Assembly: GCA_023248635.1 (NCBI GenBank)
Contig: JAHFED010000015.1
Span: 25,177-89,176, forward strand
DNA from: Myxococcales bacterium
GTDB lineage: Bacteria > Myxococcota > UBA727 > VGSZ01
Length of the DNA: 64,000 nucleotides
Reading direction: 5' to 3'
The first letter of the stretch is position 1; each line of letters starts with the position of its first letter. The notes beneath the pieces were generated by a model that saw only the letters and a list, made by a program, of their open reading frames with translations, did no database searches and was not told the DNA's origin. The position numbers and the translations under genes are program-made. This document shows, one piece after another, positions 2,812 to 14,542 of this stretch.

Positions 2812-3231
2812 ATGAACCAGAAACTCATGTACGTTGAGCGCAAGAGTGGCGGCCATCGCGGCTGCGCATGGATCGGTTTGGTGTCCTTCTCGAGGACCGG
2901 CGCCACGCTCTTCTTCAACGGGCGCGCCCATCGAAGCCTCAAGGGGTCAGGAATCTCTGGAAACTACGCCGACATTGAGACTGGTGAAGAGTTCTGGATC
3001 TCGGGCGTGAAGAAGCGCGGCACGAACCGACACCAGTTTGGTGGCGGCGCCGTCTTCGTCGATCGCGCTGCGGTATCTGCGTTGCTCCAGAAGCTGGCAA
3101 CGTCGGCACTCGACCCTGCGTCGTTCGTCGTTTCCGATGCAGAGGATACCACCGCGAGACGGATTTCACTCCACCACAAGGAGAACGAGCCGATCACCCA
3201 GAAGCGCCGATCAAAACCCGTACAGCGCTAA
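2812..3231 (+). CDS. Hypothetical protein (139 aa) in a low-GC islet
   Basis: The ORF has diverse amino-acid composition (W, Y, F, K, N, H present) and lies in a region with clearly lower GC than its surroundings. It is followed by the AGTCTGT-CT-ACAGACT hairpin at 3261-3277. I found no recognisable domain. Confidence 0.45.
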   Translation: MNQKLMYVERKSGGHRGCAWIGLVSFSRTGATLFFNGRAHRSLKGSGISGNYADIETGEEFWISGVKKRGTNRHQFGGGAVFVDRAAVSALLQKLATSALDPASFVVSDAEDTTARRISLHHKENEPITQKRRSKPVQR

Positions 3232-3313
3232 GACTTTAGAACAAAAAGTCCATCGAAGACAGTCTGTCTACAGACTTATAATTATCACGTCGTCTCGACC
3301 TGAATCGCGAGAG

Positions 3314-5947
3314 TTACCGTGGACTCGAACTGACGATGGGCTGGGCATGCTTGTCGAAGCGCAGCATCCGATCGTCGAGCAGCAGGGTGATGACGTCGAC
3401 GCGATCCTTGGGAAAGGCCATGGTCGCGACGCGGGCGGCGATGGTGGCGTCGTCGAGCTGGTTGTAATGACCATTGTTGCGCAGGTCGAGGTGCACGATG
3501 CCCTTCATGCCCGCTGGCGCGCCGCTGACGGGTCCGCTCGAGCCGTCGAAGCCCTTGAGCTGTTCGGCTGCTTTCTTCAGCGCCGGCGCCAGGTGGCGCG
3601 AGAGCACGCGCTTGTGTTGGTAGACGACGCCCTCGCTCAGATCGATGAGGTCACCGAGGCCCTGGGCGTGCTCTTCGACGGCGATCTTGTGACCCGCCGA
3701 GACCAGGTCCCAAGCGTCGCCGAGCATTGTGCAGTAGCCGTCGCCGGGCCCGCCGGGGGCTGCGATGCCCTGCAGCCAGGACTTGAGCGCATCGGGATTC
3801 TGCAGGTGTTTCGACGTCGCCAGCTCCGTGAAGCGTTCGAACACGACCTCTTGTTTAGGAGCCCAGCGGGCGGCGATGGCCAAGGCGTGGGCGCCGATGT
3901 TCTGGTACGCCGCCACCGGCGCACAGGCCCACAAGAAGCGAAAGGCCTGCGGTCCGGCGCCGTCGCGGACGAGGGCGGCGACGACGTCGGCGCCCACGCC
4001 GTGATCGAGGGCCCAGGCCACGTGGCGCAGATCGATGCCCCGGCCCTCGAGGACGCCGACGAGAGAGGGGTGCGCGCTCTTCAGCTCTTGCACGACGAAG
4101 GCGCGCGAGAGGGCGGGGTCGTGATCGATGCCCTTGCCGACGACGTTGCCGCCGCGGGGCGCGCCCTGCAGCCAACCTGCGAGCTGCTGCCCGGGGGGAT
4201 TCAACATCGTCGTCTTGTCGCCCTCAAAGAGCACCGGAGCGACGCTGCCAGCAGGGGTGGGGTCGACGTCGACGTGCTGCTGCGACGACGGCTTCGACAG
4301 CGCGGGTTGCAGCGCCCGCAGCGCCTCGGCGGGGTCGTCGGTGATGACCACCAGGTCGAGGTCTTCGGGGCTGATGGTGCGGCGCTCGGGGGCGAGCATC
4401 TTTTCCTTCAGCGCCGCAAAGATGGGGCCCCAATAGTCCTTGCCGATGAGGACGACGGGGATCTTGGGCAGGTGCCCGGTCTGCATTTGCGTGAGCACGG
4501 AGAAGACTTCGCCCAGGGTGTTGAGGCCGCCGGGGAGGGCGACGAAGGCCTGGCTGCGACGTCCCACGATCTCTTTGTGGGTGATCAGCTCGTCGACGCA
4601 TTGGTGCGTCTGCAGGTTGGGCAGATCCCGGGTGCCCTGCACCGCGCCGTGCAGCACGCCTTGAACGAGAGTGTCTTTGTCGGCGGCGGCGGCTCCATCG
4701 CAGACGGCAGCGGCGACGACGCCGGCGGAGCCCACGCGCAGGGGGATGCCCGCCTTCACCAATGAGCTCGCGAGCTCCTGGGCCACGCCCAAGGTGGGAT
4801 CGGCGTCGTCGAGGCGGCGTCCTCCCAGGAAGGTCACCGCGGGCGGCAGCCGATCGAGCACGTTGATGGACTCTTCGATCTCCTTGGCGAGTCTCTTGGC
4901 GCGGTCCAGCGGCGGACGCTCGAAGGCCAGGGTGGCAGAGGCGGCGTCGAAGTGCTGCAGCAAGGCCTTGGGATCGTCGGTGACCTTGAGCTTCTTCCAC
5001 TCGGCGGCGGGGATGAGCGCTCGGCCGCGCACAGCGACCTGCTCGATGGGATCGAGGATGGCCCGCCAGAAGTCGACGCCGACGGCGGCCAGGGGTTTGT
5101 GGAAGCGCCCCCCTTCGCCCAGGGCCATCACCTCGAACAGCTCATCGAGGGTGCCGACGCCGCCGGGAAACACCGCCACGCCCGCGCAGTTTTCGTAGAG
5201 CGCGAGCTTGCGGTAGGGAAAGAGCTTGGCCTCGGCGCCGACGTCGATGACCTCGCTCCACTCCTGCTCGAAGGGCAGGCGCACGCGAAAGCCCTGCGTC
5301 TGCTGGGCACAGGCCATGCCGGCGACCAGGGGGTGCAACGCCAGCTTCGCCGCCAACGCCGTCGCCGGAGCTGGCGCAGCGCTGAGCGCTGGCGGGGTGC
5401 TCGGGGCTGGCGAAGCGCTCGTCGGCCGGGTCGGGAGGTGCTGAAGCGCCTTTTTGTAGCCCTCGGGGCCGGCGGTCATGATGCCGGGCCCCGCACCGGT
5501 GCGCAGGGACTTTCCCTGGGTCGCAAGCAGCGCGCCGATCTGTTGGCTGATGGTGAAGTAGGGATCGGTGGGCTGGATGCGCGCGCCGCCGAAGAAGGTC
5601 ACCGCCGGCGGCAACTTCACCAAGAGCTCGAAGACGATCTGAATGTCGCTCAGCAGGGCCTCGCGCAGTTGCGAGGACTGCCAGGTGCGCAAGTCGAGGG
5701 CCGCACGCTTGCCAGGCTGCGGCTGGTACGCCGTCGACGAGGGCGAGGTCAGGGCGTGGGCGTCGAAGCGTTTGCCACTTCCGCTCACCGCATCGAGGCC
5801 CCCGCCGCTCGTCGGAGCGGGCCCAACGCTCGTCGTCGTCGGCGCCGCCGAATCAGCCGCCGGAGGTGGCGACGCAATCGTCGCACTCTTAGCCGGCCCT
5901 GGAATCACGACCTCGGAGCGAATCTTCACCACCCAAGTATCCGCCAA
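3314..5947 (-). CDS. Tandem LOG-family (TIGR00730-like, SLOG/PpnN-related) protein with a ~300-aa C-terminal domain of unknown function
   Basis: LOG/Rossmann motifs are duplicated: PPAVTFFGGAR...PGIM...FPGGVGTLDELFEVMAL appears once and PPAVTFLGGRR...LPGGLNTLGEVFSVL...VVLIGKDYW appears a second time. The N-terminal ~100 aa are low-complexity, so the true start may lie downstream. The opposite-strand ORF 3038..4765 looks like an antisense artefact. Confidence 0.7.
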   Translation of the reverse strand: MADTWVVKIRSEVVIPGPAKSATIASPPPAADSAAPTTTSVGPAPTSGGGLDAVSGSGKRFDAHALTSPSSTAYQPQPGKRAALDLRTWQSSQLREALLSDIQIVFELLVKLPPAVTFFGGARIQPTDPYFTISQQIGALLATQGKSLRTGAGPGIMTAGPEGYKKALQHLPTRPTSASPAPSTPPALSAAPAPATALAAKLALHPLVAGMACAQQTQGFRVRLPFEQEWSEVIDVGAEAKLFPYRKLALYENCAGVAVFPGGVGTLDELFEVMALGEGGRFHKPLAAVGVDFWRAILDPIEQVAVRGRALIPAAEWKKLKVTDDPKALLQHFDAASATLAFERPPLDRAKRLAKEIEESINVLDRLPPAVTFLGGRRLDDADPTLGVAQELASSLVKAGIPLRVGSAGVVAAAVCDGAAAADKDTLVQGVLHGAVQGTRDLPNLQTHQCVDELITHKEIVGRRSQAFVALPGGLNTLGEVFSVLTQMQTGHLPKIPVVLIGKDYWGPIFAALKEKMLAPERRTISPEDLDLVVITDDPAEALRALQPALSKPSSQQHVDVDPTPAGSVAPVLFEGDKTTMLNPPGQQLAGWLQGAPRGGNVVGKGIDHDPALSRAFVVQELKSAHPSLVGVLEGRGIDLRHVAWALDHGVGADVVAALVRDGAGPQAFRFLWACAPVAAYQNIGAHALAIAARWAPKQEVVFERFTELATSKHLQNPDALKSWLQGIAAPGGPGDGYCTMLGDAWDLVSAGHKIAVEEHAQGLGDLIDLSEGVVYQHKRVLSRHLAPALKKAAEQLKGFDGSSGPVSGAPAGMKGIVHLDLRNNGHYNQLDDATIAARVATMAFPKDRVDVITLLLDDRMLRFDKHAQPIVSSSPR

Positions 5948-6030
5948 CTGGGCTCTTTGGCGCAGCGAAACCCCGACGCGGTCATCGCACAGGGCTGGGC
6001 GCTCGACGACGGACCCGCTACACCGCTGTC

Positions 6031-6561
6031 ATGCTCGCGCTCGTCGTCCTCGTTGTGGCCAATCTCGGGCTGCCGGCCGCGAGGCCCAACGTCGCCCTGC
6101 CCCACACCCGCCTCGACGTCGTCGCCTTCTCCGACGACGGCACCTTTGCGCTGCTCGAAGAGACAACGCGCATTGGTCCGACCCTGCAGCAGACCTTCCT
6201 GATCGTCGATCAAAACGGCACCTCCGAGCGCCTTCCCGTGTCTTTGCGCTTCGCGGGCCTCGGCCGCGACGGTGTCGACCATGAGGTATGCACAGCGAGC
6301 GCCGAACGTCTGGCGTCGATGGCCAAGGATCTGCGCGGGGTCTCGGTGCGCATTGGGCTGTGTGGGTCGATGCGGCGCGACATCGTCGACGTCATGGGTG
6401 CGCCGCGTCCAGCGCTCCTGTCGAAGAAGACGGCGGCCTTTCACCAGCAGGTTGGCTTCGCGGGACGGGTGTTTTTGGCGCCCACAGGGCCCTTGGTGCT
6501 GGTCGTCGGTGTCGACGAGCTCGGCAACGACCGCCTCGGAACCGCGGTGCAGGACGACTAG
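6031..6561 (+). CDS. Hypothetical exported protein
   Basis: It has an N-terminal hydrophobic signal-like segment MLALVVLVVANLGLPAA and a non-repetitive composition. It ends 5 nt before the DUF1178 gene. Confidence 0.45.
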   Translation: MLALVVLVVANLGLPAARPNVALPHTRLDVVAFSDDGTFALLEETTRIGPTLQQTFLIVDQNGTSERLPVSLRFAGLGRDGVDHEVCTASAERLASMAKDLRGVSVRIGLCGSMRRDIVDVMGAPRPALLSKKTAAFHQQVGFAGRVFLAPTGPLVLVVGVDELGNDRLGTAVQDD

Positions 6562-6565
6562 ACCC

Positions 6566-7021
6566 ATGTTCATCGTCGATCTTATCTGCGGTGCTGGCCA
6601 CCTCTTTGAGGGCTGGTACGACAACAAAGACGCCTTCGACGACGCTCGTGAGGCAGCAGCTCTCAGTTGTCCGCTTTGCAGCGACGCCAACGTCGAACAG
6701 CGCCCCAGTTTCCGCGGCATCGTCCGCCGCGCGCCCGCCCCGAAGCGCCCTGCAGACACGCCCAGCGCCGTGTCAGCGACGCCGACGCCGACGCCGTTGT
6801 CCCTGGAGCTGCAACGGAAACTGTCGGCGCTGCTGAAGCTGGTGAAAGCCCACACCCAAGACGCCGGCGACGCCTTCGCCACCCGCGCCCTCGCCATGCA
6901 CAAGGGCGACGCGGAGCCTGTCCCCATCCACGGCACCTCGACGCCGGAGGAGCAGCAGACCTTGCGCGACGAAGGTGTGCCCTTCGGGCTCATCCCGGTG
7001 CCCGACATCGATCAGAACTGA
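6566..7021 (+). CDS. DUF1178-family zinc-ribbon protein
   Basis: It starts MFIVDLICGAGHLFEGWY... with a CxxC pair (CPLC), which is typical of DUF1178. The upstream part of the six-frame ORF (6272-6565) is not coding. Confidence 0.6.
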   Translation: MFIVDLICGAGHLFEGWYDNKDAFDDAREAAALSCPLCSDANVEQRPSFRGIVRRAPAPKRPADTPSAVSATPTPTPLSLELQRKLSALLKLVKAHTQDAGDAFATRALAMHKGDAEPVPIHGTSTPEEQQTLRDEGVPFGLIPVPDIDQN

Positions 7022-8514: not shown

Positions 8515-8576
8515 CGGTCCGCACGATAGCGGGGGAAAACGACAAGAGTGTGTCGATCGCGAACCAATGTTCGCCG

Positions 8577-9047
8577 TCAGACGATCGGCATGCAGTCCAA
8601 GATGGCCTCCTCGAGCTGGTCGACGTCGACGGGCTTGTCGAAGAAGCGGGTGCGTGGAACGCGGGCGATGCGGGCCCGCAGCGCCGGGTCTCCGAAGGCC
8701 GAGATCATGATGATCGGCGTCAGCATGCCGGCGTTGCGCAGGCCGACGACGACGTTGAGCGTGTTGAAGCCCGGCATGCGCACGTCAGTGACGATGACGT
8801 CGGGGGCGCTGCCCGGTTTGGCCACCATGCTGTCGGCGAGCACCTCGAGCAGCTCGAAGCCGTTGCGCACCGTCGAGACCACGAAGCCGTCGCGCTCAAA
8901 GAGGGCAGCCAAAGAAGAGCGCAGGTCGTCGTCGTCTTCGGCGAGCAAGACCCGCGGTCGGTGGCTGGGCCATGTGTCCAGATGGAGGCAGCCTTCGTCG
9001 TCGTCGACGGGGGGATCGAGGGGGATGGACGAGTGGTGGCGTTGCAT
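8577..9047 (-). CDS. Single-domain response regulator (receiver only)
   Basis: RVLLAEDDDDLR...VIVTDVRMPGF...IIMISAFGD...KPVDVDQL is a REC domain. It is paralogous to the RECs at 12339-12773 and at the C-terminus of the sigma-54 activator. Confidence 0.8.
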   Translation of the reverse strand: MQRHHSSIPLDPPVDDDEGCLHLDTWPSHRPRVLLAEDDDDLRSSLAALFERDGFVVSTVRNGFELLEVLADSMVAKPGSAPDVIVTDVRMPGFNTLNVVVGLRNAGMLTPIIMISAFGDPALRARIARVPRTRFFDKPVDVDQLEEAILDCMPIV

Positions 9048-9204
9048 GTTGACGCTCCTGTGGTGGTGGCGTCATCGTCGACTCAAGGCCCGTGCCGCGC
9101 TCAGCCCTCTTCGGGGTCGGCGCGCTGCTGTTGACGTCGATGGAGACGCAATCGGTGCGCGCAGGCCGCCGGAGAAGCGCAACATCTGCGGATCGTGGGG
9201 CCGC

Positions 9205-9582
9205 TCACGGCAGAGGGGTTGTGGGCGCCCATTGCCGCACCAGGGCGAGGAGGTCGTCGATGTCGACGGGCTTGCGCAACCAACCAGCAGCGCCCAGCCG
9301 CGGTGCCACCTGGGCGACGTCGGCGCCGGCGGACAAGATGATGACGGGGATCGACGCCCACGGCGAGGCGCGCAGCGCCTGCAGCAGCCGCGCACCGCCC
9401 ATCACCGGCATCACCAAGTCCACGACCAGCAAGGCGGGCAGGATCGCCGTCGTCGCCAACGTCGACAGCGCCTGCTCTCCATGGGCGGCCGTGATCGTTG
9501 GGTGACCGTGCTCCTCGAGCACCCAGGCCAGGCTTTCACGGCAGTCGCTGTCGTCTTCGACGATCATCACCGACGAGGGCAT
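9205..9582 (-). CDS. Single-domain response regulator (receiver only)
   Basis: MPSSVMIVEDDSDCRESLAWVLEEHGH...LVVDLVMPVMGG...VIILSAGAD...KPVDIDDL is a REC domain. I placed the start at the internal ATG (9582). Confidence 0.7.
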   Translation of the reverse strand: MPSSVMIVEDDSDCRESLAWVLEEHGHPTITAAHGEQALSTLATTAILPALLVVDLVMPVMGGARLLQALRASPWASIPVIILSAGADVAQVAPRLGAAGWLRKPVDIDDLLALVRQWAPTTPLP

Positions 9583-9777
9583 CTCATTCCCCGTCCTCGC
9601 TGTCATCGATGCCGAGGCCCAAGCGGCAGCAGCAACGCGCGCAGACATCCGGGCCAGGACCTCGCAGGCGTCGACGTCGTCGTCGGCAACGACGGCTCGG
9701 CGACGACGCGTCTTGGTGGGGACGATGTCGAGGTGTCGACGTCGGCGCACGATCCGGGACAACAGCATCCCGGGACA

Positions 9778-12057
9778 TCACGCTGTCGATGCTTGGGGCT
9801 GGGCGGTGGTGGCGGCGGTGATCGAGCGCAGGGTCAGCACGAGGATGTTGCCGACGGCAGTGCTCCGTGGCCCGAGCACGAGGTCGCCGCCGACGGCGCG
9901 GGCGATGTCTCGCACGACGTGAAGACCGATGCCAGATCCGCTCCCCGCTCGATCGGCCAGATCGGTGTGAAACTGAAAGGGCGAGAAGATCTCGGTGCGT
10001 TCGTCGTCGGCAACAGGATCGGCGCCGTCGCCCACCAGCACGCGCAGCACGTCGCCGTCTTGTTCGGCGCGCACGGTGATGGCGCCGGCCTCGGTGTTGC
10101 GCAGCGCATAGGCCAAGAGGTTGTGCACGATCAGGTGGATCAGCCGACGATCGCTCGTCAGAGGCGACATCCCCCGCAGGTCGACGTCGACGTCGACGCC
10201 CTTGTCGTCGGCCTGGCTCTGCAACTCGGCCACCACGGCGTCGAGCTCGCCGCGCACGTCGACGGTCTGGATCTCGAGCCGGCACCGGCCGCTCTCGACG
10301 CGGGCCCACTCGATCATGGTGTCGATCAGCTTGACCAGCCGCCCGCTCGCGCGGCGCATGCGGACCAGGCCGTCGGCCGGCGAGTGCGGTGTGCTGGAGT
10401 TGATACCGGGCGCCACCGCGAACTCCTTGCTGCGCTCGAGCATGTGGAGGTGCAGCAACATGGCAGCGAGGGGCGTCTTGAGCTCGTGCGACATCATGCG
10501 CAGGAAGTTGCTCTTCACCCGGTTGGCGCGCTCGGCGGCGTCGCGCTCGATGCTGAGCTCTTGCAGCGCCACCTCGAGGTCGCTCTGGCGTTGGGCGACG
10601 TCGTTGGCGAGCTGCACCAGGTTTTGTTCGTGACGTCCAAGGGCACAGTTGAGGATCGCGCGCGCGTGGTTGGCCGCCACCAGGGCCCGCACGCGCGCCC
10701 GCACTTCGAGGTCTTGAAAGGGCTTGCGCACCACGCCTTCGACGCCGGCCTCGAGCAGGCGCACGACCTGGGCACGATCCTCGGTGGCGGTGAGCACGAG
10801 GATCGGAACGTCGGCGAGCTCGTCATGCTTGCGGAGCTCGTGAATCATCGTCTCGCCATTCATGCGCGGCATCATGACGTCGGTGACGATGAGGTCGGGC
10901 TTGAGCGCGATAGCCTTGGTGAGCCCGTCGACGCCGTCGAAGGCCGAGGCGATGTTGTAGGTGGGACCCAGGCACACCGTGATGATGCGCTGGGTCGCTC
11001 GACTGTCGTCGACGATGAGCACCAGCGGCCGTTCATCGCGCACGACATCGGCGCCGAGCTTCTCCTCCGCTTGGAGCTCCTCGGCGGTGACCTGGGCGAC
11101 GACGTCGGCGAGGCCTGTCGGCCGCGCTTCCTCCTGGGCCACGGTCAGGGCTTCCGGCGCACGGGCGGGAAAGCTCGCATCGAAGACGCAGCCGCTTCGT
11201 CCGGGTGTGCTGCGCAGCAGCAGGGTGCCGCCGTGGAGGCGGCTGTAGTCCCGCGAGGCGCCGAGGTTGAACACCCGGCCGCCGATGTGCCGCCCGGCGC
11301 TGCGATCATGGTGCACGGCACGCCCGAACAGCGCCTCGCCCTGGGCAGTTGCGATGCGCAAGCCGCTGTCGGCGACGCTGAGGGTGACGGTGTTGGCGGG
11401 TTCGTCGCGCTGCAGGGTGCAGCGAATCACGCCCGCCCGGGGCGTGTGTTTGAACGCGTTCAGCAGCAGGTTCAAGAGCACCATCTCGAATTTGGCGGGA
11501 TCGACGTCGACGAAGGCCACGTTGCCAACGTCCTGGTGGAAGGCGATGCCTCGGCGCAGCGCCAAAGAAGCGAAGCTCGCGCAGGACGCGCGTGTGAGCG
11601 CCGAGAGGTCGGTCCGGTGCCGCACGATCGCAAGCTCGTCGCCGGGGAAGGGGTTGTCGCGGTCCGCCACGCGCTCCGACAGGCACTCCAGCGATGCGAG
11701 CAGGGTGCGCAGGTCCCGCTTGGCGCGATCGCTCAGCGACGATGATTTGGTTTCGACGATGAGATGCCGCAGCAGGGGCCGCCAGGCTGCGCTCGCGACC
11801 TCAAAGGCCCCAGCCCGATCGGGAGCGTCCCGGAGGCGACCAACGATGCCTTCGACGCTGACCTGCCACCAGCCCCGCCGGGAGCCCGGCGGTCGCGCTA
11901 CGCAGGCGGCCAAGGCCACGAGCTCCTCGATGCAAGAGGCTTCCAGGGGCAGGGCCAAGTCTGAGGAGAGCACGCGCCGTCCAACGCAAGGCGCGCGCCA
12001 CCAAACCCCGCAGAAAGCGGCAGGCAGCTCGCAAGGCGGGATCGTCGTCGACTGCAA
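9778..12057 (-). CDS. Hybrid sensor histidine kinase/response regulator with two HATPase_c modules (HATPase-REC-HisKA-HATPase)
   Basis: The N-terminal half has N/G boxes (LNLLLNAFKHT, SVADSGLRI) but no obvious H-box. A REC domain follows (LVLIVDDSRATQ...LIVTDVMMPRMNG...PILVLTA). A canonical HisKA is next (RVKSNFLRMMSHELKTPL), then HATPase (HNLLAYALRNT...GSGIGLHVV). The start is uncertain. Confidence 0.8.
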   Translation of the reverse strand: MQSTTIPPCELPAAFCGVWWRAPCVGRRVLSSDLALPLEASCIEELVALAACVARPPGSRRGWWQVSVEGIVGRLRDAPDRAGAFEVASAAWRPLLRHLIVETKSSSLSDRAKRDLRTLLASLECLSERVADRDNPFPGDELAIVRHRTDLSALTRASCASFASLALRRGIAFHQDVGNVAFVDVDPAKFEMVLLNLLLNAFKHTPRAGVIRCTLQRDEPANTVTLSVADSGLRIATAQGEALFGRAVHHDRSAGRHIGGRVFNLGASRDYSRLHGGTLLLRSTPGRSGCVFDASFPARAPEALTVAQEEARPTGLADVVAQVTAEELQAEEKLGADVVRDERPLVLIVDDSRATQRIITVCLGPTYNIASAFDGVDGLTKAIALKPDLIVTDVMMPRMNGETMIHELRKHDELADVPILVLTATEDRAQVVRLLEAGVEGVVRKPFQDLEVRARVRALVAANHARAILNCALGRHEQNLVQLANDVAQRQSDLEVALQELSIERDAAERANRVKSNFLRMMSHELKTPLAAMLLHLHMLERSKEFAVAPGINSSTPHSPADGLVRMRRASGRLVKLIDTMIEWARVESGRCRLEIQTVDVRGELDAVVAELQSQADDKGVDVDVDLRGMSPLTSDRRLIHLIVHNLLAYALRNTEAGAITVRAEQDGDVLRVLVGDGADPVADDERTEIFSPFQFHTDLADRAGSGSGIGLHVVRDIARAVGGDLVLGPRSTAVGNILVLTLRSITAATTAQPQASTA

Positions 12058-12338
12058 AGCGCGGTCGTTTCGCCCGCCGGCCCTGCAAAAGCTGCAGGCG
12101 GCAGGGCGAGCGTCCCGGATCGATCGTCCTTCCGTCGCCGTGGCGCATCGGTTGCTACGGTCTTTTGCCCGGGAGCGGCTTGCAGTGTCGGAGTCCAGAC
12201 GCTGCAGGCCGCTGCTCTGGGGGTTGCTGCAAGACGCTGGCGAAGTCGGCGTCGCTGGAATGTCGTTGCTCCACCGTCGAGCTCATCCGTCGACGTTTGA
12301 CGTTCGAACGCTGCGCGTCCGCTGCGCGAGGTCCGCCC

Positions 12339-12773
12339 ATGCAAGTACAAAGCGACCCTGGCTCTGGATTCCGAATCGCGCTCGCCGAAGACGATCACGA
12401 CCTGCGCACGGGTCTGGCGGCCTTGCTCGAGGCCGATGGCCATCAGGTGGATGCACTGGCTTCGGGAGCGGTGCTCATCGAACATCTGACGGCAGCCATC
12501 CTCGACGTCGATGCCGGTCGGCCTGATGCCATCGTCACCGACGTGCGCATGCCGGGGGTGAGCGGGCTCAGCATCGTCGAAGGCCTGCGGGCCAATGGCT
12601 GGGATGCCCCCATCATCATCATCTCGGCCTTCGCCGACCAAGAGCTGCGAGAGCGCGTGAACCGCCTCGGAGGCGCCGTACTCTTCGCCAAGCCCTTCGA
12701 CCCCGATGAGCTCGGACGCACGCTGAGCCAGATGCTGCGCGGCCACCGCGCTTGCGCCGCGGGAGCCGTGTGA
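12339..12773 (+). CDS. Single-domain response regulator (receiver only)
   Basis: RIALAEDDHDLRTGLAALLEADGH...AIVTDVRMPGVSG...IIIISAFADQ...KPFDPDEL is a REC domain. I placed the start at the internal ATG 12339 (MQVQSD). Confidence 0.75.
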   Translation: MQVQSDPGSGFRIALAEDDHDLRTGLAALLEADGHQVDALASGAVLIEHLTAAILDVDAGRPDAIVTDVRMPGVSGLSIVEGLRANGWDAPIIIISAFADQELRERVNRLGGAVLFAKPFDPDELGRTLSQMLRGHRACAAGAV

Positions 12774-14542
12774 AGAGCGACGAGCTTGGCGTGGCAGCTG
12801 CGCTCCCCCGGCGCATCCTCATGGTCACCAACAATGGGGCGCATGGCGAGCTCTGCAGCCGCATCGAGGCGGCTGGCTTCTCGGCCCGTGGCGTCCGCGA
12901 CGTCGCCGACGTGCCCCAGGTCGTGGCCCAATGGCGACCCACCGTGGTGCTCGTCGACGCCAACCTCAGCGGCGGAGCTGCTCAGGTCATCGACAGCGTC
13001 CGCGCTGTACATGCGGCTGCCGTCTGCGTGCTTCTCGTCGACGCCGCCTGTGGCAGAGCCGTCACCGATGCGCTGCTCTGCAAGGCCGACACCCTCTTGC
13101 CTTGGCCCGTAGACGTCGTCGCCTTGGGGCGCTTGCTGGCACTGACGGAAGCTCCGCGCACCGAGCCGGCAGCGACGTCCCAGCTGCCGACGTCTGTGAT
13201 TGGCAGAAGCGGGGCCATGGCCGAAGTGTGGCGACGGGTAATTCTTGCCGCGCAGACGCGGGCGTCGTTGCTCATCAGCGGCGAGACGGGGGTCGGCAAG
13301 GAGGTGATCGCGCGGGCCGTGCACCGCTTCTCTCCTCGACGACGCGGACCCTTCATCGCGGTCAACTGCGCCGCGCTGCCCGAGACGCTGCTGGAGGCGG
13401 AGCTCTTTGGCTACGAGGCCGGTGCCTTCACCGGCGCGAGCCGCCGTCACAAGGGCCGCTTCGAGCTGGCCCAGGGCGGCACCCTCTTTCTCGACGAGAT
13501 CGGCGATCTGCCGCTGGTGGTGCAGGTCAAGCTGCTCCGCGTCTTGCAGGAGCGCAGCTTCGAGCGGCTCGGCGGCACCGAGTCCATCCCCGTCGACGTC
13601 CGCGTCATCTCGGCGACGCACCGTGACCTCGACGCAGCGAGCAACGCCGGCAGCTTCCGCCTCGACCTCTTCTACCGCCTCAACGTCATCGCTCTCCAAG
13701 TGCCACCGCTGCGCGAACGTCCAGAGGACGTGCTCGAGCTTTGGGACAGCTTCTTGTCCCAGCAGGCGCGAGAAGAAGATCGGAAGCCGCCGCAGACGAC
13801 GCCGGCGGCCCGCAGCCGCTTGTTGCGCCACGATTGGCCGGGCAACGTGCGCGAGCTGCAGAACGCTGCTCAACACGCGCTGACGGTGGCCACCAGTGAC
13901 GTCGTCGACGAAGACAGCCTGCCTTCAACCCTGCTGGCGCCTCGCCGCACCCACGTGATGAGCCTGGTGGGATTGACCCTCAAGGAGATCGAAAGGCTCG
14001 CCATCTTGCAGACCTACGATGCGCTGGGTTCCATCGATGCGACGGCCCAAGCGCTGGGCATCTCCGCGCGCACCATTCACTACCGTCTCCGCGACTACCG
14101 CTCGCAGACGGCGGTCGTCGTCGCCGCCCGAGCCAAGGTGCCGTCGGCGCTGCGGGTGTTGCTGGCCGAAGACGACGACGACCTGCGCGGGGCCCTGACC
14201 GAATTCCTGCGCGGAGAAGGGCTCACCGTCGTCGCCGTCGCTGATGGCGACGCGGCCTTGGCCCACCTGCACGACGTCGGCGATGCCCCGCCGGATCTCT
14301 TGGTCACTGACGTGCGCATGCCCCGCGTCAATGGCATCGAGCTGCTCGAGGGCGTGCGGGCCCGCGGTCTCGGCCTGCCCGTCATCGTGATGAGCGCCTT
14401 CGGCGACGGCGACACCCGCGACCGCGCGCTGGCTCTGGGGGCCACTTCGTTCCTCGCCAAACCCGTCGACATCAACGACTTGCAGCGGGCGATCCGCGCC
14501 CTGTCCCCCGCGGCCTGGAACGACGACAGGAGGTTGACATGA
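12770..14542 (+). CDS. Sigma-54-dependent transcriptional activator (NtrC-like) with an additional C-terminal receiver domain
   Basis: An AAA+ sigma-54 interaction domain is present (LISGETGVGKEVIARAVH...GAFTGA...GNVRELQN), followed by a Fis-type HTH. A complete second REC follows (RVLLAEDDDDLRGAL...LLVTDVRMPRVNG...VIVMSAFGDGD...KPVDINDL). The start is ambiguous; a GTG at 12770 overlaps the upstream stop, and an ATG lies at 12752. Confidence 0.85.
   Translation: MKSDELGVAAALPRRILMVTNNGAHGELCSRIEAAGFSARGVRDVADVPQVVAQWRPTVVLVDANLSGGAAQVIDSVRAVHAAAVCVLLVDAACGRAVTDALLCKADTLLPWPVDVVALGRLLALTEAPRTEPAATSQLPTSVIGRSGAMAEVWRRVILAAQTRASLLISGETGVGKEVIARAVHRFSPRRRGPFIAVNCAALPETLLEAELFGYEAGAFTGASRRHKGRFELAQGGTLFLDEIGDLPLVVQVKLLRVLQERSFERLGGTESIPVDVRVISATHRDLDAASNAGSFRLDLFYRLNVIALQVPPLRERPEDVLELWDSFLSQQAREEDRKPPQTTPAARSRLLRHDWPGNVRELQNAAQHALTVATSDVVDEDSLPSTLLAPRRTHVMSLVGLTLKEIERLAILQTYDALGSIDATAQALGISARTIHYRLRDYRSQTAVVVAARAKVPSALRVLLAEDDDDLRGALTEFLRGEGLTVVAVADGDAALAHLHDVGDAPPDLLVTDVRMPRVNGIELLEGVRARGLGLPVIVMSAFGDGDTRDRALALGATSFLAKPVDINDLQRAIRALSPAAWNDDRRLT

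Follow-up and report, generated by a model that had tools for sequence, protein, structure and literature searches.

A tandem LOG protein of uncultured Myxococcota fused to a predicted toxin-type nuclease module

We analyzed a 64,000-nucleotide stretch of DNA from a Myxococcales bacterium (contig JAHFED010000015.1, positions 25,177 to 89,176), the whole of which is referred to here as the window, and within it a gene for a protein with two tandem LOG domains and a C-terminal module of approximately 320 amino acids (aa). An initial annotation of this DNA had placed an 877-aa open reading frame (ORF) at 3314-5947 and described it as two intact LOG cores followed by a distinct domain of about 300 aa of unknown function. 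The 877-codon ORF is present and uninterrupted. It lies on the minus strand, which had been left unstated, and runs from a TTG at 5947 to the stop codon at 3314-3316; the strings quoted for its translation (PGIM, GGVGTLDELFEV, GGLNTLGEVFSV and VVLIGKDYW) were all found. The parts of the gene are given below, where pLDDT (predicted local distance difference test) is the per-residue confidence of the structural models and dN/dS is the ratio of nonsynonymous to synonymous substitution, all values of which are rough Nei-Gojobori estimates for a high-GC genome.

3314..5947, minus strand: whole ORF, 877 codons from TTG, or 872 aa from a probable GTG start at 5932
5696..5947, minus strand: aa 1-84, disordered N-terminal region rich in Pro, Ala, Ser and Thr; pLDDT <50, dN/dS 0.39-0.59
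4913..5677, minus strand: aa 91-345, LOG1, aligning with 5zi9 and 5wq3 and type-II-like; additional N-terminal helix at aa 91-111
5297..5452, minus strand: aa 166-217, LOG1-internal insertion of low complexity, ~52 aa long, in place of a 6-residue loop of solved type-II LOGs
4292..4912, minus strand: aa 346-552, LOG2, a LOG fold of high pLDDT with its own N-terminal helix at aa 346-366 and an altered active site
4118..4291, minus strand: aa 553-610, linker, partly disordered (pLDDT <50 for 555-586); dN/dS 0.41-0.85
3698..4117, minus strand: aa 611-750, helical subdomain with nine predicted helices
3338..3697, minus strand: aa 751-870, predicted restriction-endonuclease-fold (PD-(D/E)xK-like) core in αβββαβ order; pLDDT about 90

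Translation is likely to start at the GTG at 5932 rather than at the TTG at 5947. The start region reads TTG GCG GAT ACT TGG GTG GTG AAG, and the GTG is preferred because a database protein identical to the window protein (P0001) has 872 aa and because the relatives begin at VKIR. Comparison with other proteins indicates that the ORF is a genuine gene, given the identical 872-aa protein, approximately 30 full-length relatives at 44–80% identity, and the low dN/dS. When compared with the closest relative, every folded domain had a dN/dS of 0.18-0.24, and by this measure all folded domains of the window protein are shown to be under purifying selection. The first 84 residues do not resemble a signal peptide; they resemble the disordered N-terminal region of type-II LOGs, such as that present in CgLOGII (PMC5379747).

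The N-terminal part of the protein contains two copies of the LOG domain. The Pfam family PF03641 matched two stretches of the window protein with 119.2 bits (cutoff 27), as did TIGR00730 with 132.5 bits (cutoff 96.35), and the LOG1 and LOG2 halves aligned to each other with E=3e-12. The tandem architecture to which the initial annotation drew attention is therefore real, and it is unusual in that no report of it was found in the literature searched. The best solved sequence relatives are the type-II LOGs 5zi9, 5wq3 and 1wek (E=1e-17 to 1e-24), and both domains of the model have, at the N-terminus, the additional helix that type-II LOGs typically show. The match to the NCBIfam equivalog for cytokinin riboside 5'-monophosphate phosphoribohydrolase (NF058542) was 60.6 bits, far below its cutoff of 300.

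Catalytic LOGs are defined by an Arg and a Glu together with the motif PGGxGTxxE, and proteins of the MCP group are kept out of the family since their Arg is replaced (PMC5379747). In CgLOGII the motif is 170-PGGFGTLDE-178, which provides Thr175 and main-chain atoms for phosphate binding and Asp177 for adenine binding (PMC5379747). LOG1 contains the full set, with GAGPGIM at 151-157, R246-K247, and PGGVGTLDE at 261-269 (nt 5141-5167). These motifs, including R246, E269 and PGGVGTLDE, are invariant in 30/30 family members, and LOG1 is by its motifs a canonical, catalytically competent type-II LOG phosphoribohydrolase. The insertion within LOG1 is delimited by the alignment of query residue 165 with 5zi9 residue 124 and of query residue 218 with 5zi9 residue 131; it is predicted to be disordered, with a pLDDT <50 for residues 174-241 and a dN/dS of 0.34-0.57.

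The statement that both LOG cores are intact holds for LOG1 and fails for LOG2. The Gly-rich loop of LOG2 reads RVGSAGVVAAAV instead of GGGPGxM (family form GSxGVVAxA; GSAGVVAAAV in the window protein). Because Lys156 of 5wq3 aligns with K458, the catalytic Arg155 corresponds to His457 (nt 4577-4579). LOG2 also has PGGLNTLGE (472-480, nt 4508-4534) instead of PGGxGTxxE, such that Gly174 is replaced by Asn476 and the adenine-binding Asp177 by Gly479. K458, the phosphate-binding T477 and E480 are kept in LOG2, and although the catalytic Glu is thus present, the set of Arg, Glu and PGGxGTxxE is incomplete. The alterations are invariant in the family (His occupies the catalytic Arg position in all 30 members), and the dN/dS of LOG2 (0.18) is the lowest of all regions. 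These invariant changes and the low dN/dS indicate that LOG2 is a conserved, functional domain, yet not a canonical LOG enzyme.

We considered whether the protein could be an ordinary PpnN/LOG paralogue with a DUF3412-like tail, with which a weak match to the NCBIfam PpnN model (24.4 bits, aa 113-195) and a weak match to 3bq9 (E=3.6e-4) would agree. The PpnN equivalog NF038390 has a cutoff of 450 bits, however, and the best matches of the protein are to type-II LOGs. A Pfam search that the initial annotation had proposed recovered LOG in two stretches and neither DUF4478 nor DUF3412, with thresholds of E<=1 for the full sequence and E<=10 for the tail, and the tail is homologous to toxin modules, as described below. 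The comparison with PpnN made at that stage was inapt, because DUF4478 and DUF3412 flank the LOG domain of PpnN only and not those of LOGs generally; nor does it follow that a second copy without the catalytic Arg would make this an ordinary PpnN paralogue, with 24 bits against a cutoff of 450. These results refute this explanation, which we regard as highly improbable.

The C-terminal module was examined by structure prediction and by profile searches. The tail is a distinct extra domain and is not DUF3412. Its designation as a domain of unknown function is correct in so far as the last ~320 aa have no Pfam match even at E<=10, but the domain is not wholly unknown in kind: it is homologous to a polymorphic-toxin module with a PD-(D/E)xK-type motif, which could not be seen from the letters alone. 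Among the 22 LOG-fused C-terminal segments none matches a Pfam toxin or nuclease family at E<=1, and the module has no PADLOC or NCBIfam match. An AlphaFold2 model of the region, built on a 22-sequence alignment, was confident (pLDDT 88.8, predicted template modeling score (pTM) 0.85). In this predicted structure the core consists of a helix (732-750), three strands (755-760, 763-769 and 774-780), a second helix (787-798) and a further strand (799-808), which gives the αβββαβ order. H753 and E758/E759 are located on β1, D766 and D769 on β2, Q777-x-K779 together with R780 on β3, and Q796 on the helix that follows. The β3 motif reads Q777-H-K779, and the segment from D766 to K779 spans nt 3611-3652. 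D766/D769 and the QxK thus occupy the positions of the PD and (D/E)xK of restriction-endonuclease-fold enzymes, and the window protein possesses both the β2 acidic residue and the β3 (D/E/Q)xK by which PD-(D/E)xK nucleases are recognized.

In a Foldseek search with the predicted tail, as the initial annotation had also proposed, the best match in the Protein Data Bank (PDB) was the toxin CdiA-CT (4g6v_A; probability 1.00, E=8e-3, TM 0.57 on the target), with weaker matches to I-Ssp6803I, Cas4 SSO0001, Mus81, Hjc, EcoRV and YaeQ, all of one fold class. CdiA-CT of Burkholderia pseudomallei 1026b (4G6V chain A) is a PD-(D/E)xK-fold tRNase neutralized by CdiI. Weak matches in the viral library BFVD were to a 'CDI toxin-like protein', a 'type VII secretion protein' and MuF/minor-capsid fusions, as well as to MmcB, Cas4, Exo VIII, a 'PD-(D/E)XK nuclease', Vsr, Mrr and DUF559. 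The model and its structural matches suggest that the C-terminal module is a PD-(D/E)xK-type predicted nuclease domain.

Two other assignments for parts of the module were rejected. An OTU/papain-like cysteine protease, prompted by 'GDGYCTML...NGHYNQL', is discounted since Cys738 and His829 are not conserved and the family consensus is GDGFATML and NNxAxNAL. A helical hairpin at aa 648-680 (3908-4006, minus strand), DHGVGADVVAALVRDGAGPQAFRFLWACAPV, resembles the TAL-effector (TALE) repeat AHGLTPEQVVAIASNGGGKQALETVQRLLPV with 13.0 bits, a score that none of 5000 shuffles reached (maximum 12.9). A TALE-like repeat array in a 'TALEN-like' layout was nevertheless rejected, there being no internal periodicity (HHalign self-comparison probability 0.1%), so that the resemblance is limited to one hairpin. 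The profile match to Hax3/dTALE (E=2e-5) was inflated by 11 near-identical repeats in the target, the best single stretch giving 9.6 bits.

Relatives of the module outside the LOG-fused proteins were identified by searching a C-terminal profile against 1.84 billion representative proteins, which yielded 79 hits with E values as low as 1e-16 for a library of this size (1.84e9 proteins). In most carriers, many of them large proteins, the core (~aa 695-865) sits no more than ~60 residues from the C-terminus. At least 8 carriers have a Pfam eCIS_core/DUF4157 domain near the N-terminus, the arrangement described for toxins of extracellular contractile injection systems (eCIS), in which an N-terminal DUF4157 is followed, often after a very long linker, by a variable C-terminal toxin domain (PMC8213781). 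Other carriers have PAAR, RHS repeats, or a type VII secretion system (T7SS) signal domain or WXG100, and stand-alone copies of the module were found as well. The carriers are taxonomically scattered, with Paraburkholderia and Blastocatellia as examples, and their phyla include Proteobacteria and Acidobacteriota among others; their names in the sources are 'hypothetical protein', 'predicted Rossmann-fold nucleotide-binding protein', or none. In a scan of the 70 other carrier proteins, no Pfam family matched the module region at E<=0.001.

The proposed catalytic residues are nearly invariant in the distant toxin copies: D766 in 65/65, D769 in 61/65, Q777 in 61/65, K779 in 63/65 and Q796 in 64/65, with the consensus GHxVxL..GxADVVDxTxxEAxQxKxV...AAxQLxG. 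The window protein keeps every one of these near-invariant residues (GDLIDLSEGVVYQHKRV...AAEQL), and the last three helices of the helical subdomain (~aa 695-750, motif SxxLxNP) are likewise common to the toxin-borne copies. A reciprocal profile, made from 61 distant copies and no LOG-fused ones, matched the window protein with 96.6 bits over aa 629-855, compared to 7.3 bits for the best of 2000 shuffles. By these profile comparisons the C-terminal module is shown to be homologous to polymorphic-toxin warheads.

Several of the toxin-type copies are accompanied by a small downstream gene. For the stand-alone copies P0063 and P0066 the next gene overlaps the stop codon of the module by 4 bp, and for the eCIS toxin P0087 it begins 10 nt downstream. 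The three downstream products are homologous (E=1e-13 and 1e-5), as would be expected of a cognate immunity family. The toxin and immunity-like pairs are:

L008 5001-9836 (P0087): eCIS toxin, with the immunity-like gene at 9846-10604
L009 785-1891: module gene, with the immunity-like gene at 1888-2367
L010 5001-6194: module gene, with the immunity-like gene at 6191-6832

A third stand-alone copy (P0065) has no immunity-like neighbor. When a profile of the immunity-like family was run against the 64-kb window and the LOG-associated loci L001-L007 and L012-L015, it gave no match, and an immunity gene adjoining the LOG-fused genes was rejected on this basis. Stand-alone modules next to LOG genes, as would result from a split fusion, were not seen at the stand-alone loci examined.

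Given these relatives, the whole protein could itself be a secreted or injected polymorphic toxin, with the nuclease as warhead and the LOG-LOG part as an additional toxic (nucleotide-depleting) or carrier domain. The module homologues are indeed C-terminal warheads of eCIS, type VI secretion system (T6SS), Rhs and T7SS toxins, the N-terminus is disordered, and identifiable immunity genes are absent for many eCIS toxins (PMC8213781). The window protein differs from such toxins, however, in its LOG-LOG N-terminus, in having no trafficking domain, signal peptide or lipobox, and in having no cognate immunity gene downstream. Type-II LOGs characteristically have a disordered N-terminus too, as does the short tandem-LOG form without a warhead, and there are no secretion-system families among the matches listed for the window or in the relatives' loci. 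In addition, its N-terminal part is conserved and its C-terminal part is not subject to replacement, the opposite of what polymorphic toxins show. The window protein carries a toxin module and is not itself a polymorphic toxin; a secreted role for it is very unlikely.

The family of the window protein was delimited by a word-based search that recovered 62 proteins, all of which, where named, come from metagenome-assembled genomes (MAGs) of uncultured Myxococcota or 'Deltaproteobacteria'. Approximately 31 of the 62 have the long architecture of tandem LOG plus module, and approximately 30 are tandem-LOG proteins of about 500 aa without the module, in which LOG2 likewise has His at the catalytic Arg position. 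The LOG-fused form of the module was found in 3 of 185,579 species-representative genomes, all of them Myxococcota MAGs. A long protein (P0002, locus L001) and a short one (P0048, locus L011) occur in one assembly, GCA_030685175.1, indicating that the two forms are paralogues; the coexistence of a module-free paralogue with the long form also indicates that the LOG pair has a function of its own. Two proteins depart from the tandem arrangement of an intact and an altered domain. P0064, which is found on 16 contigs, has a single degenerate LOG2-like domain followed by the module (L012 4001-5764), and P0067 has two strongly degenerate LOG-like domains followed by the module; these architectures indicate that the module associates with the non-catalytic type of LOG. 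Two features of these relatives are recorded here for completeness. The gene for P0064 overlaps by 4 bp, and is thus translationally coupled to, a gene for a 165-aa predicted membrane protein (L012 5761-6258) that is unrelated to the immunity-like family, and the distant tandem-LOG proteins P0061 and P0062 (610-615 aa), which have no module, contain a helical insertion of ~90 aa in the first LOG before GAGPGIM.

In the window, the gene appears to be monocistronic, with the following neighbors:

2812-3231, plus strand: 139-aa ORF, convergent with the LOG-fusion gene, G+C 0.58-0.59 compared to about 0.68 around it, no Pfam or NCBIfam match
6031-6561, plus strand: 176-aa ORF, divergent from the LOG-fusion gene, no family match
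6566-7021, plus strand: DUF1178 protein, 3' of the 176-aa ORF

Farther out are rpsD, a MotA/TolQ-like gene, glgA and two-component regulators. The 176-aa ORF and the DUF1178 gene are kept beside the closest relative (L001 5374-5910 and 4910-5374) and not beside distant ones. DUF1178 and glgA are neighbors that the window gene has in common only with the closest relative, the contexts of the other relatives being unrelated. A conserved operon or defense island was rejected on the grounds of these unrelated contexts and the lack of a PADLOC match. On the same strand 3' of the LOG-fusion gene, locus L001 encodes a 547-aa protein without Pfam matches and a 1026-aa HSP70-like protein (8558-13278); neither has a counterpart at this position in the window. 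When every window ORF of 280 aa or more was compared with Pfam, the families listed (25 of the 55 matched) were housekeeping and regulatory ones. Positions 16000-64000 contain RCC1-repeat, DUF4215 and Dicty_CTDC repeat proteins together with 4-alpha-glucanotransferase, Dus, CNNM/CBS and Mrp-antiporter genes, a content that fits a myxobacterial chromosome. Scans of the window for tRNAs and Rfam families gave no matches, and promoter and terminator signals around the gene were uninformative. Because the genome has a G+C content of ~67%, long spurious ORFs are common. Many very long ORFs of up to 1065 aa (3038-4765, 4952-6202 and 8548-11745 on the plus strand, for example) overlap real genes or run antisense to them. 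Rich in Arg, Ala and Gly, they are spurious products of the base composition; the one at 3038..4765, of 575 aa, is antisense to the LOG-fusion gene.

Such a context would accord with a metabolic role, in which the module binds RNA (tRNA, for example) or DNA, or cuts it, and LOG1 then removes bases from the resulting 5'-phosphorylated nucleotides, leading to nucleotide salvage or to the release from nucleic acid of modified bases as cytokinin-like signals. The module would then supply or recruit substrate and not be a regulated toxin. LOG1 is fully catalytic by motif and invariant, a tRNase (CdiA-CT) is the solved structure most similar to the module, and the LOG-like clade has been described as acting on AMP-containing substrates that include tRNA (PMC9503650). 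The housekeeping surroundings, the inheritance of the gene within one lineage and the lack of an immunity partner are also consistent with this possibility. A PD-(D/E)xK endonuclease yields oligonucleotides, however, whereas LOG uses mononucleotides, and there is no exonuclease in the fusion or next to it. A metabolic coupling would also leave unexplained the conserved alteration of LOG2 and the existence of P0064 without an active LOG, and the relatives of the module are toxins with immunity partners, not metabolic enzymes. We consider it unlikely.

One intact and one altered LOG domain joined to a predicted toxin-type nuclease suggest an undescribed nucleotide-controlled nuclease. We tentatively favor an intracellular, nucleotide-gated nuclease for which the LOG pair senses and processes the ligand, an interpretation that we hold to be quite possible while short of probable. 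The protein would be a cytoplasmic single-chain sensor-effector with three working parts. LOG1 would cleave the N-glycosidic bond of a nucleoside 5'-monophosphate; LOG2 would most likely bind a phosphoribosyl ligand rather than turn it over efficiently; and the C-terminal module would be a nuclease of the PD-(D/E)xK type that was taken over from the repertoire of C-terminal domains of polymorphic toxins. LOG1 and LOG2 could form an intramolecular pseudo-dimer that mimics the obligatory LOG homodimer, which is plausible because LOG proteins work as dimers (PMC5379747). Ligand bound to the LOG pair would gate the nuclease in cis, so that a separate immunity protein would not be needed, and hydrolysis by LOG1 of the ligand or of a competing nucleotide would set the threshold or reset the switch. 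In stress or infection the nuclease would cleave RNA or DNA, whether cellular or invading, and growth arrest or abortive infection would follow. Gating and its ligand are inferred, as are the target nucleic acid and the physiological role. SLOG domains comprise both enzymes and non-catalytic nucleotide sensors, and earlier work has viewed fusions of SLOG with a nuclease as sensor-activated systems (PMC9503650), with which gating of the nuclease by the LOG pair is in keeping. The same is true of the finding that effector domains are common to polymorphic toxins and intracellular conflict systems (PMC7159879). The initial annotation pointed in the right direction when it mentioned nucleotide-centered conflict systems.

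A number of observations weigh against a gated nuclease. There is no ligand, partner enzyme or conserved neighbor to hint at a signaling pathway, and the gene lies amid housekeeping genes and not in a defense island, with no PADLOC match. The full-length model had a pTM of 0.54, meaning that the arrangement of the domains relative to each other is not confidently predicted. The immunity-like family, on which the apparent freedom from immunity genes is judged, was sampled at four toxin or stand-alone loci only, which is a small sample. Catalytic residues are retained by part of the family: Q777, K779 and Q796 are present in 17-19 of the 30 long-family members, among them the window protein, while Q777 is absent in 11/30 LOG-fused members and K779 in 13/30. 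The three residues are replaced in a subclade (P0011, 13, 14, 16, 18-21) and in P0024-26 and P0031. Between subclades the module is the fastest-evolving folded part of the protein (dN/dS 0.68-0.83). This rapid evolution and the loss of Q777, K779 and Q796 in about one third of the family indicate that nuclease catalysis is not essential to every family member.

The same residues bear on the possibility that the module has been domesticated as a non-catalytic domain, the protein being a LOG paralogue whose toxin-derived part binds nucleic acid or protein or oligomerizes, and thereby localizes or regulates the enzyme. Members without the QxK still keep H753, D769, R780, H819, D821, R823, N825 and D858, among which are residues not conserved in the toxin copies, and for those members the loss of the QxK lends real support to domestication. 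The absence of an immunity gene, the solitary position of the gene in a housekeeping context, and the presence of a short module-free paralogue in the same genome, which implies that the LOG pair functions by itself, are also consistent with such a role. Set against this, the subclade of the window protein keeps all the catalytic residues of the toxin type, and within it the module has a dN/dS of 0.22, making it as constrained as the LOG domains. The retention of D, D, QxK and Q across 44–80% identity is hard to explain without catalysis. We judge a non-catalytic module rather unlikely; this explanation and the metabolic one are the main rivals of the nucleotide-gated nuclease, with a secreted toxin and an ordinary PpnN paralogue being unlikely.

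A more specific version of the gated nuclease, and a doubtful one, is an immunity-free 'suicide switch' in which the LOG pseudo-dimer restrains the toxin-derived nuclease, a nucleotide in the degenerate LOG2 releases it, and LOG1 destroys the ligand and so sets the threshold. The trigger may be a specific nucleotide or a base-modified or ADP-ribose-like ligand.

The window protein can be placed by comparison with several known systems. The type-II hexameric LOGs (CgLOGII/Cg1261, 5WQ3; 5ZI9; TtLOGII, 1WEK) are its best sequence matches (E=1e-22 to 1e-24) and have in common with LOG1 the extra N-terminal helix, the disordered N-terminus, the catalytic residues Arg and Glu, a Gly-rich loop, and the motif PGGxGTxDE, whose Asp is that of type II. 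Unlike them, the window protein has a tandem duplication in one chain, a second copy altered to His in place of Arg, a disordered insertion of ~52 aa in LOG1, and an appended 320-aa toxin-type module. CdiA-CT, a contact-dependent-inhibition toxin, is a C-terminal warhead with cognate immunity, as are the toxin homologues of the module. Its sequence identity to the module is 9%, with no detectable sequence homology, and the module differs from it in its D...D...QxK motif, in the preceding helical subdomain, in fusion to LOG instead of a delivery filament, and in having no immunity gene after it. The C-terminal domains of eCIS toxins (DUF4157; Geller et al. 2021, PMC8213781) and of PAAR, Rhs and T7SS/LXG toxins are homologous to the module, but the window protein, unlike these polymorphic toxins, has no trafficking domain, linked secretion system or immunity-like neighbor.

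A parallel in logic is found in SLOG sensor-effectors, in which a nucleotide-derived ligand controls the effector and, as in the window protein, a SLOG domain short of the full catalytic set is fused in one chain to a toxic-type effector. Examples are ThsA of Thoeris, in which SIR2 is joined to a SLOG domain that binds a cADPR isomer, and the SLOG-HNH and SLOG-exonuclease fusions of phages (PMC9503650). Unlike in these proteins, the LOG domains of the window protein belong to the LOG-like enzymatic clade and not to the YpsA-like sensor clade, and they are duplicated, one being still catalytic. The window gene also has no TIR, cyclase or other signal-generating partner in an operon, no PADLOC match and no defense island by which a SLOG sensor-effector defense system would be recognized. 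PpnN (YgdH), a nucleotide 5'-monophosphate nucleosidase, offers a conceptual precedent in that its LOG-like catalytic domain is allosterically controlled by a nucleotide, (p)ppGpp; it differs in having a single LOG and no nuclease module, and the window protein in turn has neither DUF4478 nor DUF3412. The CARF-nuclease proteins Can1 and Card1 and the SAVED-nuclease protein Cap4 are analogous ligand-controlled effectors.

LOG/SLOG domains and restriction-endonuclease-fold toxin modules are known, and SLOG-effector fusions have been predicted before. The combination of a tandem type-II LOG, one copy of which is degenerate, with a toxin-type nuclease and no immunity gene appears to be undescribed in the literature searched. 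To our knowledge, work on LOG enzymes has dealt almost exclusively with cytokinin or nucleotide hydrolases of a single domain. The analysis also defines a widespread toxin C-terminal domain, with eCIS, T6SS-PAAR, Rhs and T7SS carriers across phyla, and its cognate immunity-like family, both of which are now annotated as hypothetical and lack Pfam, NCBIfam and PADLOC models. If the LOG pair gates the nuclease, then the LOG clade would join CARF, SAVED and YpsA-type SLOG as a ligand-sensing input for nucleic-acid-degrading effectors, and the protein would show that a polymorphic-toxin warhead can be kept inside its producer without an immunity protein. The 'suicide switch', if true, would be a one-polypeptide analogue of CARF/SAVED/SLOG second-messenger defense in social (multicellular) myxobacteria, built from the fold of a cytokinin-activating enzyme.

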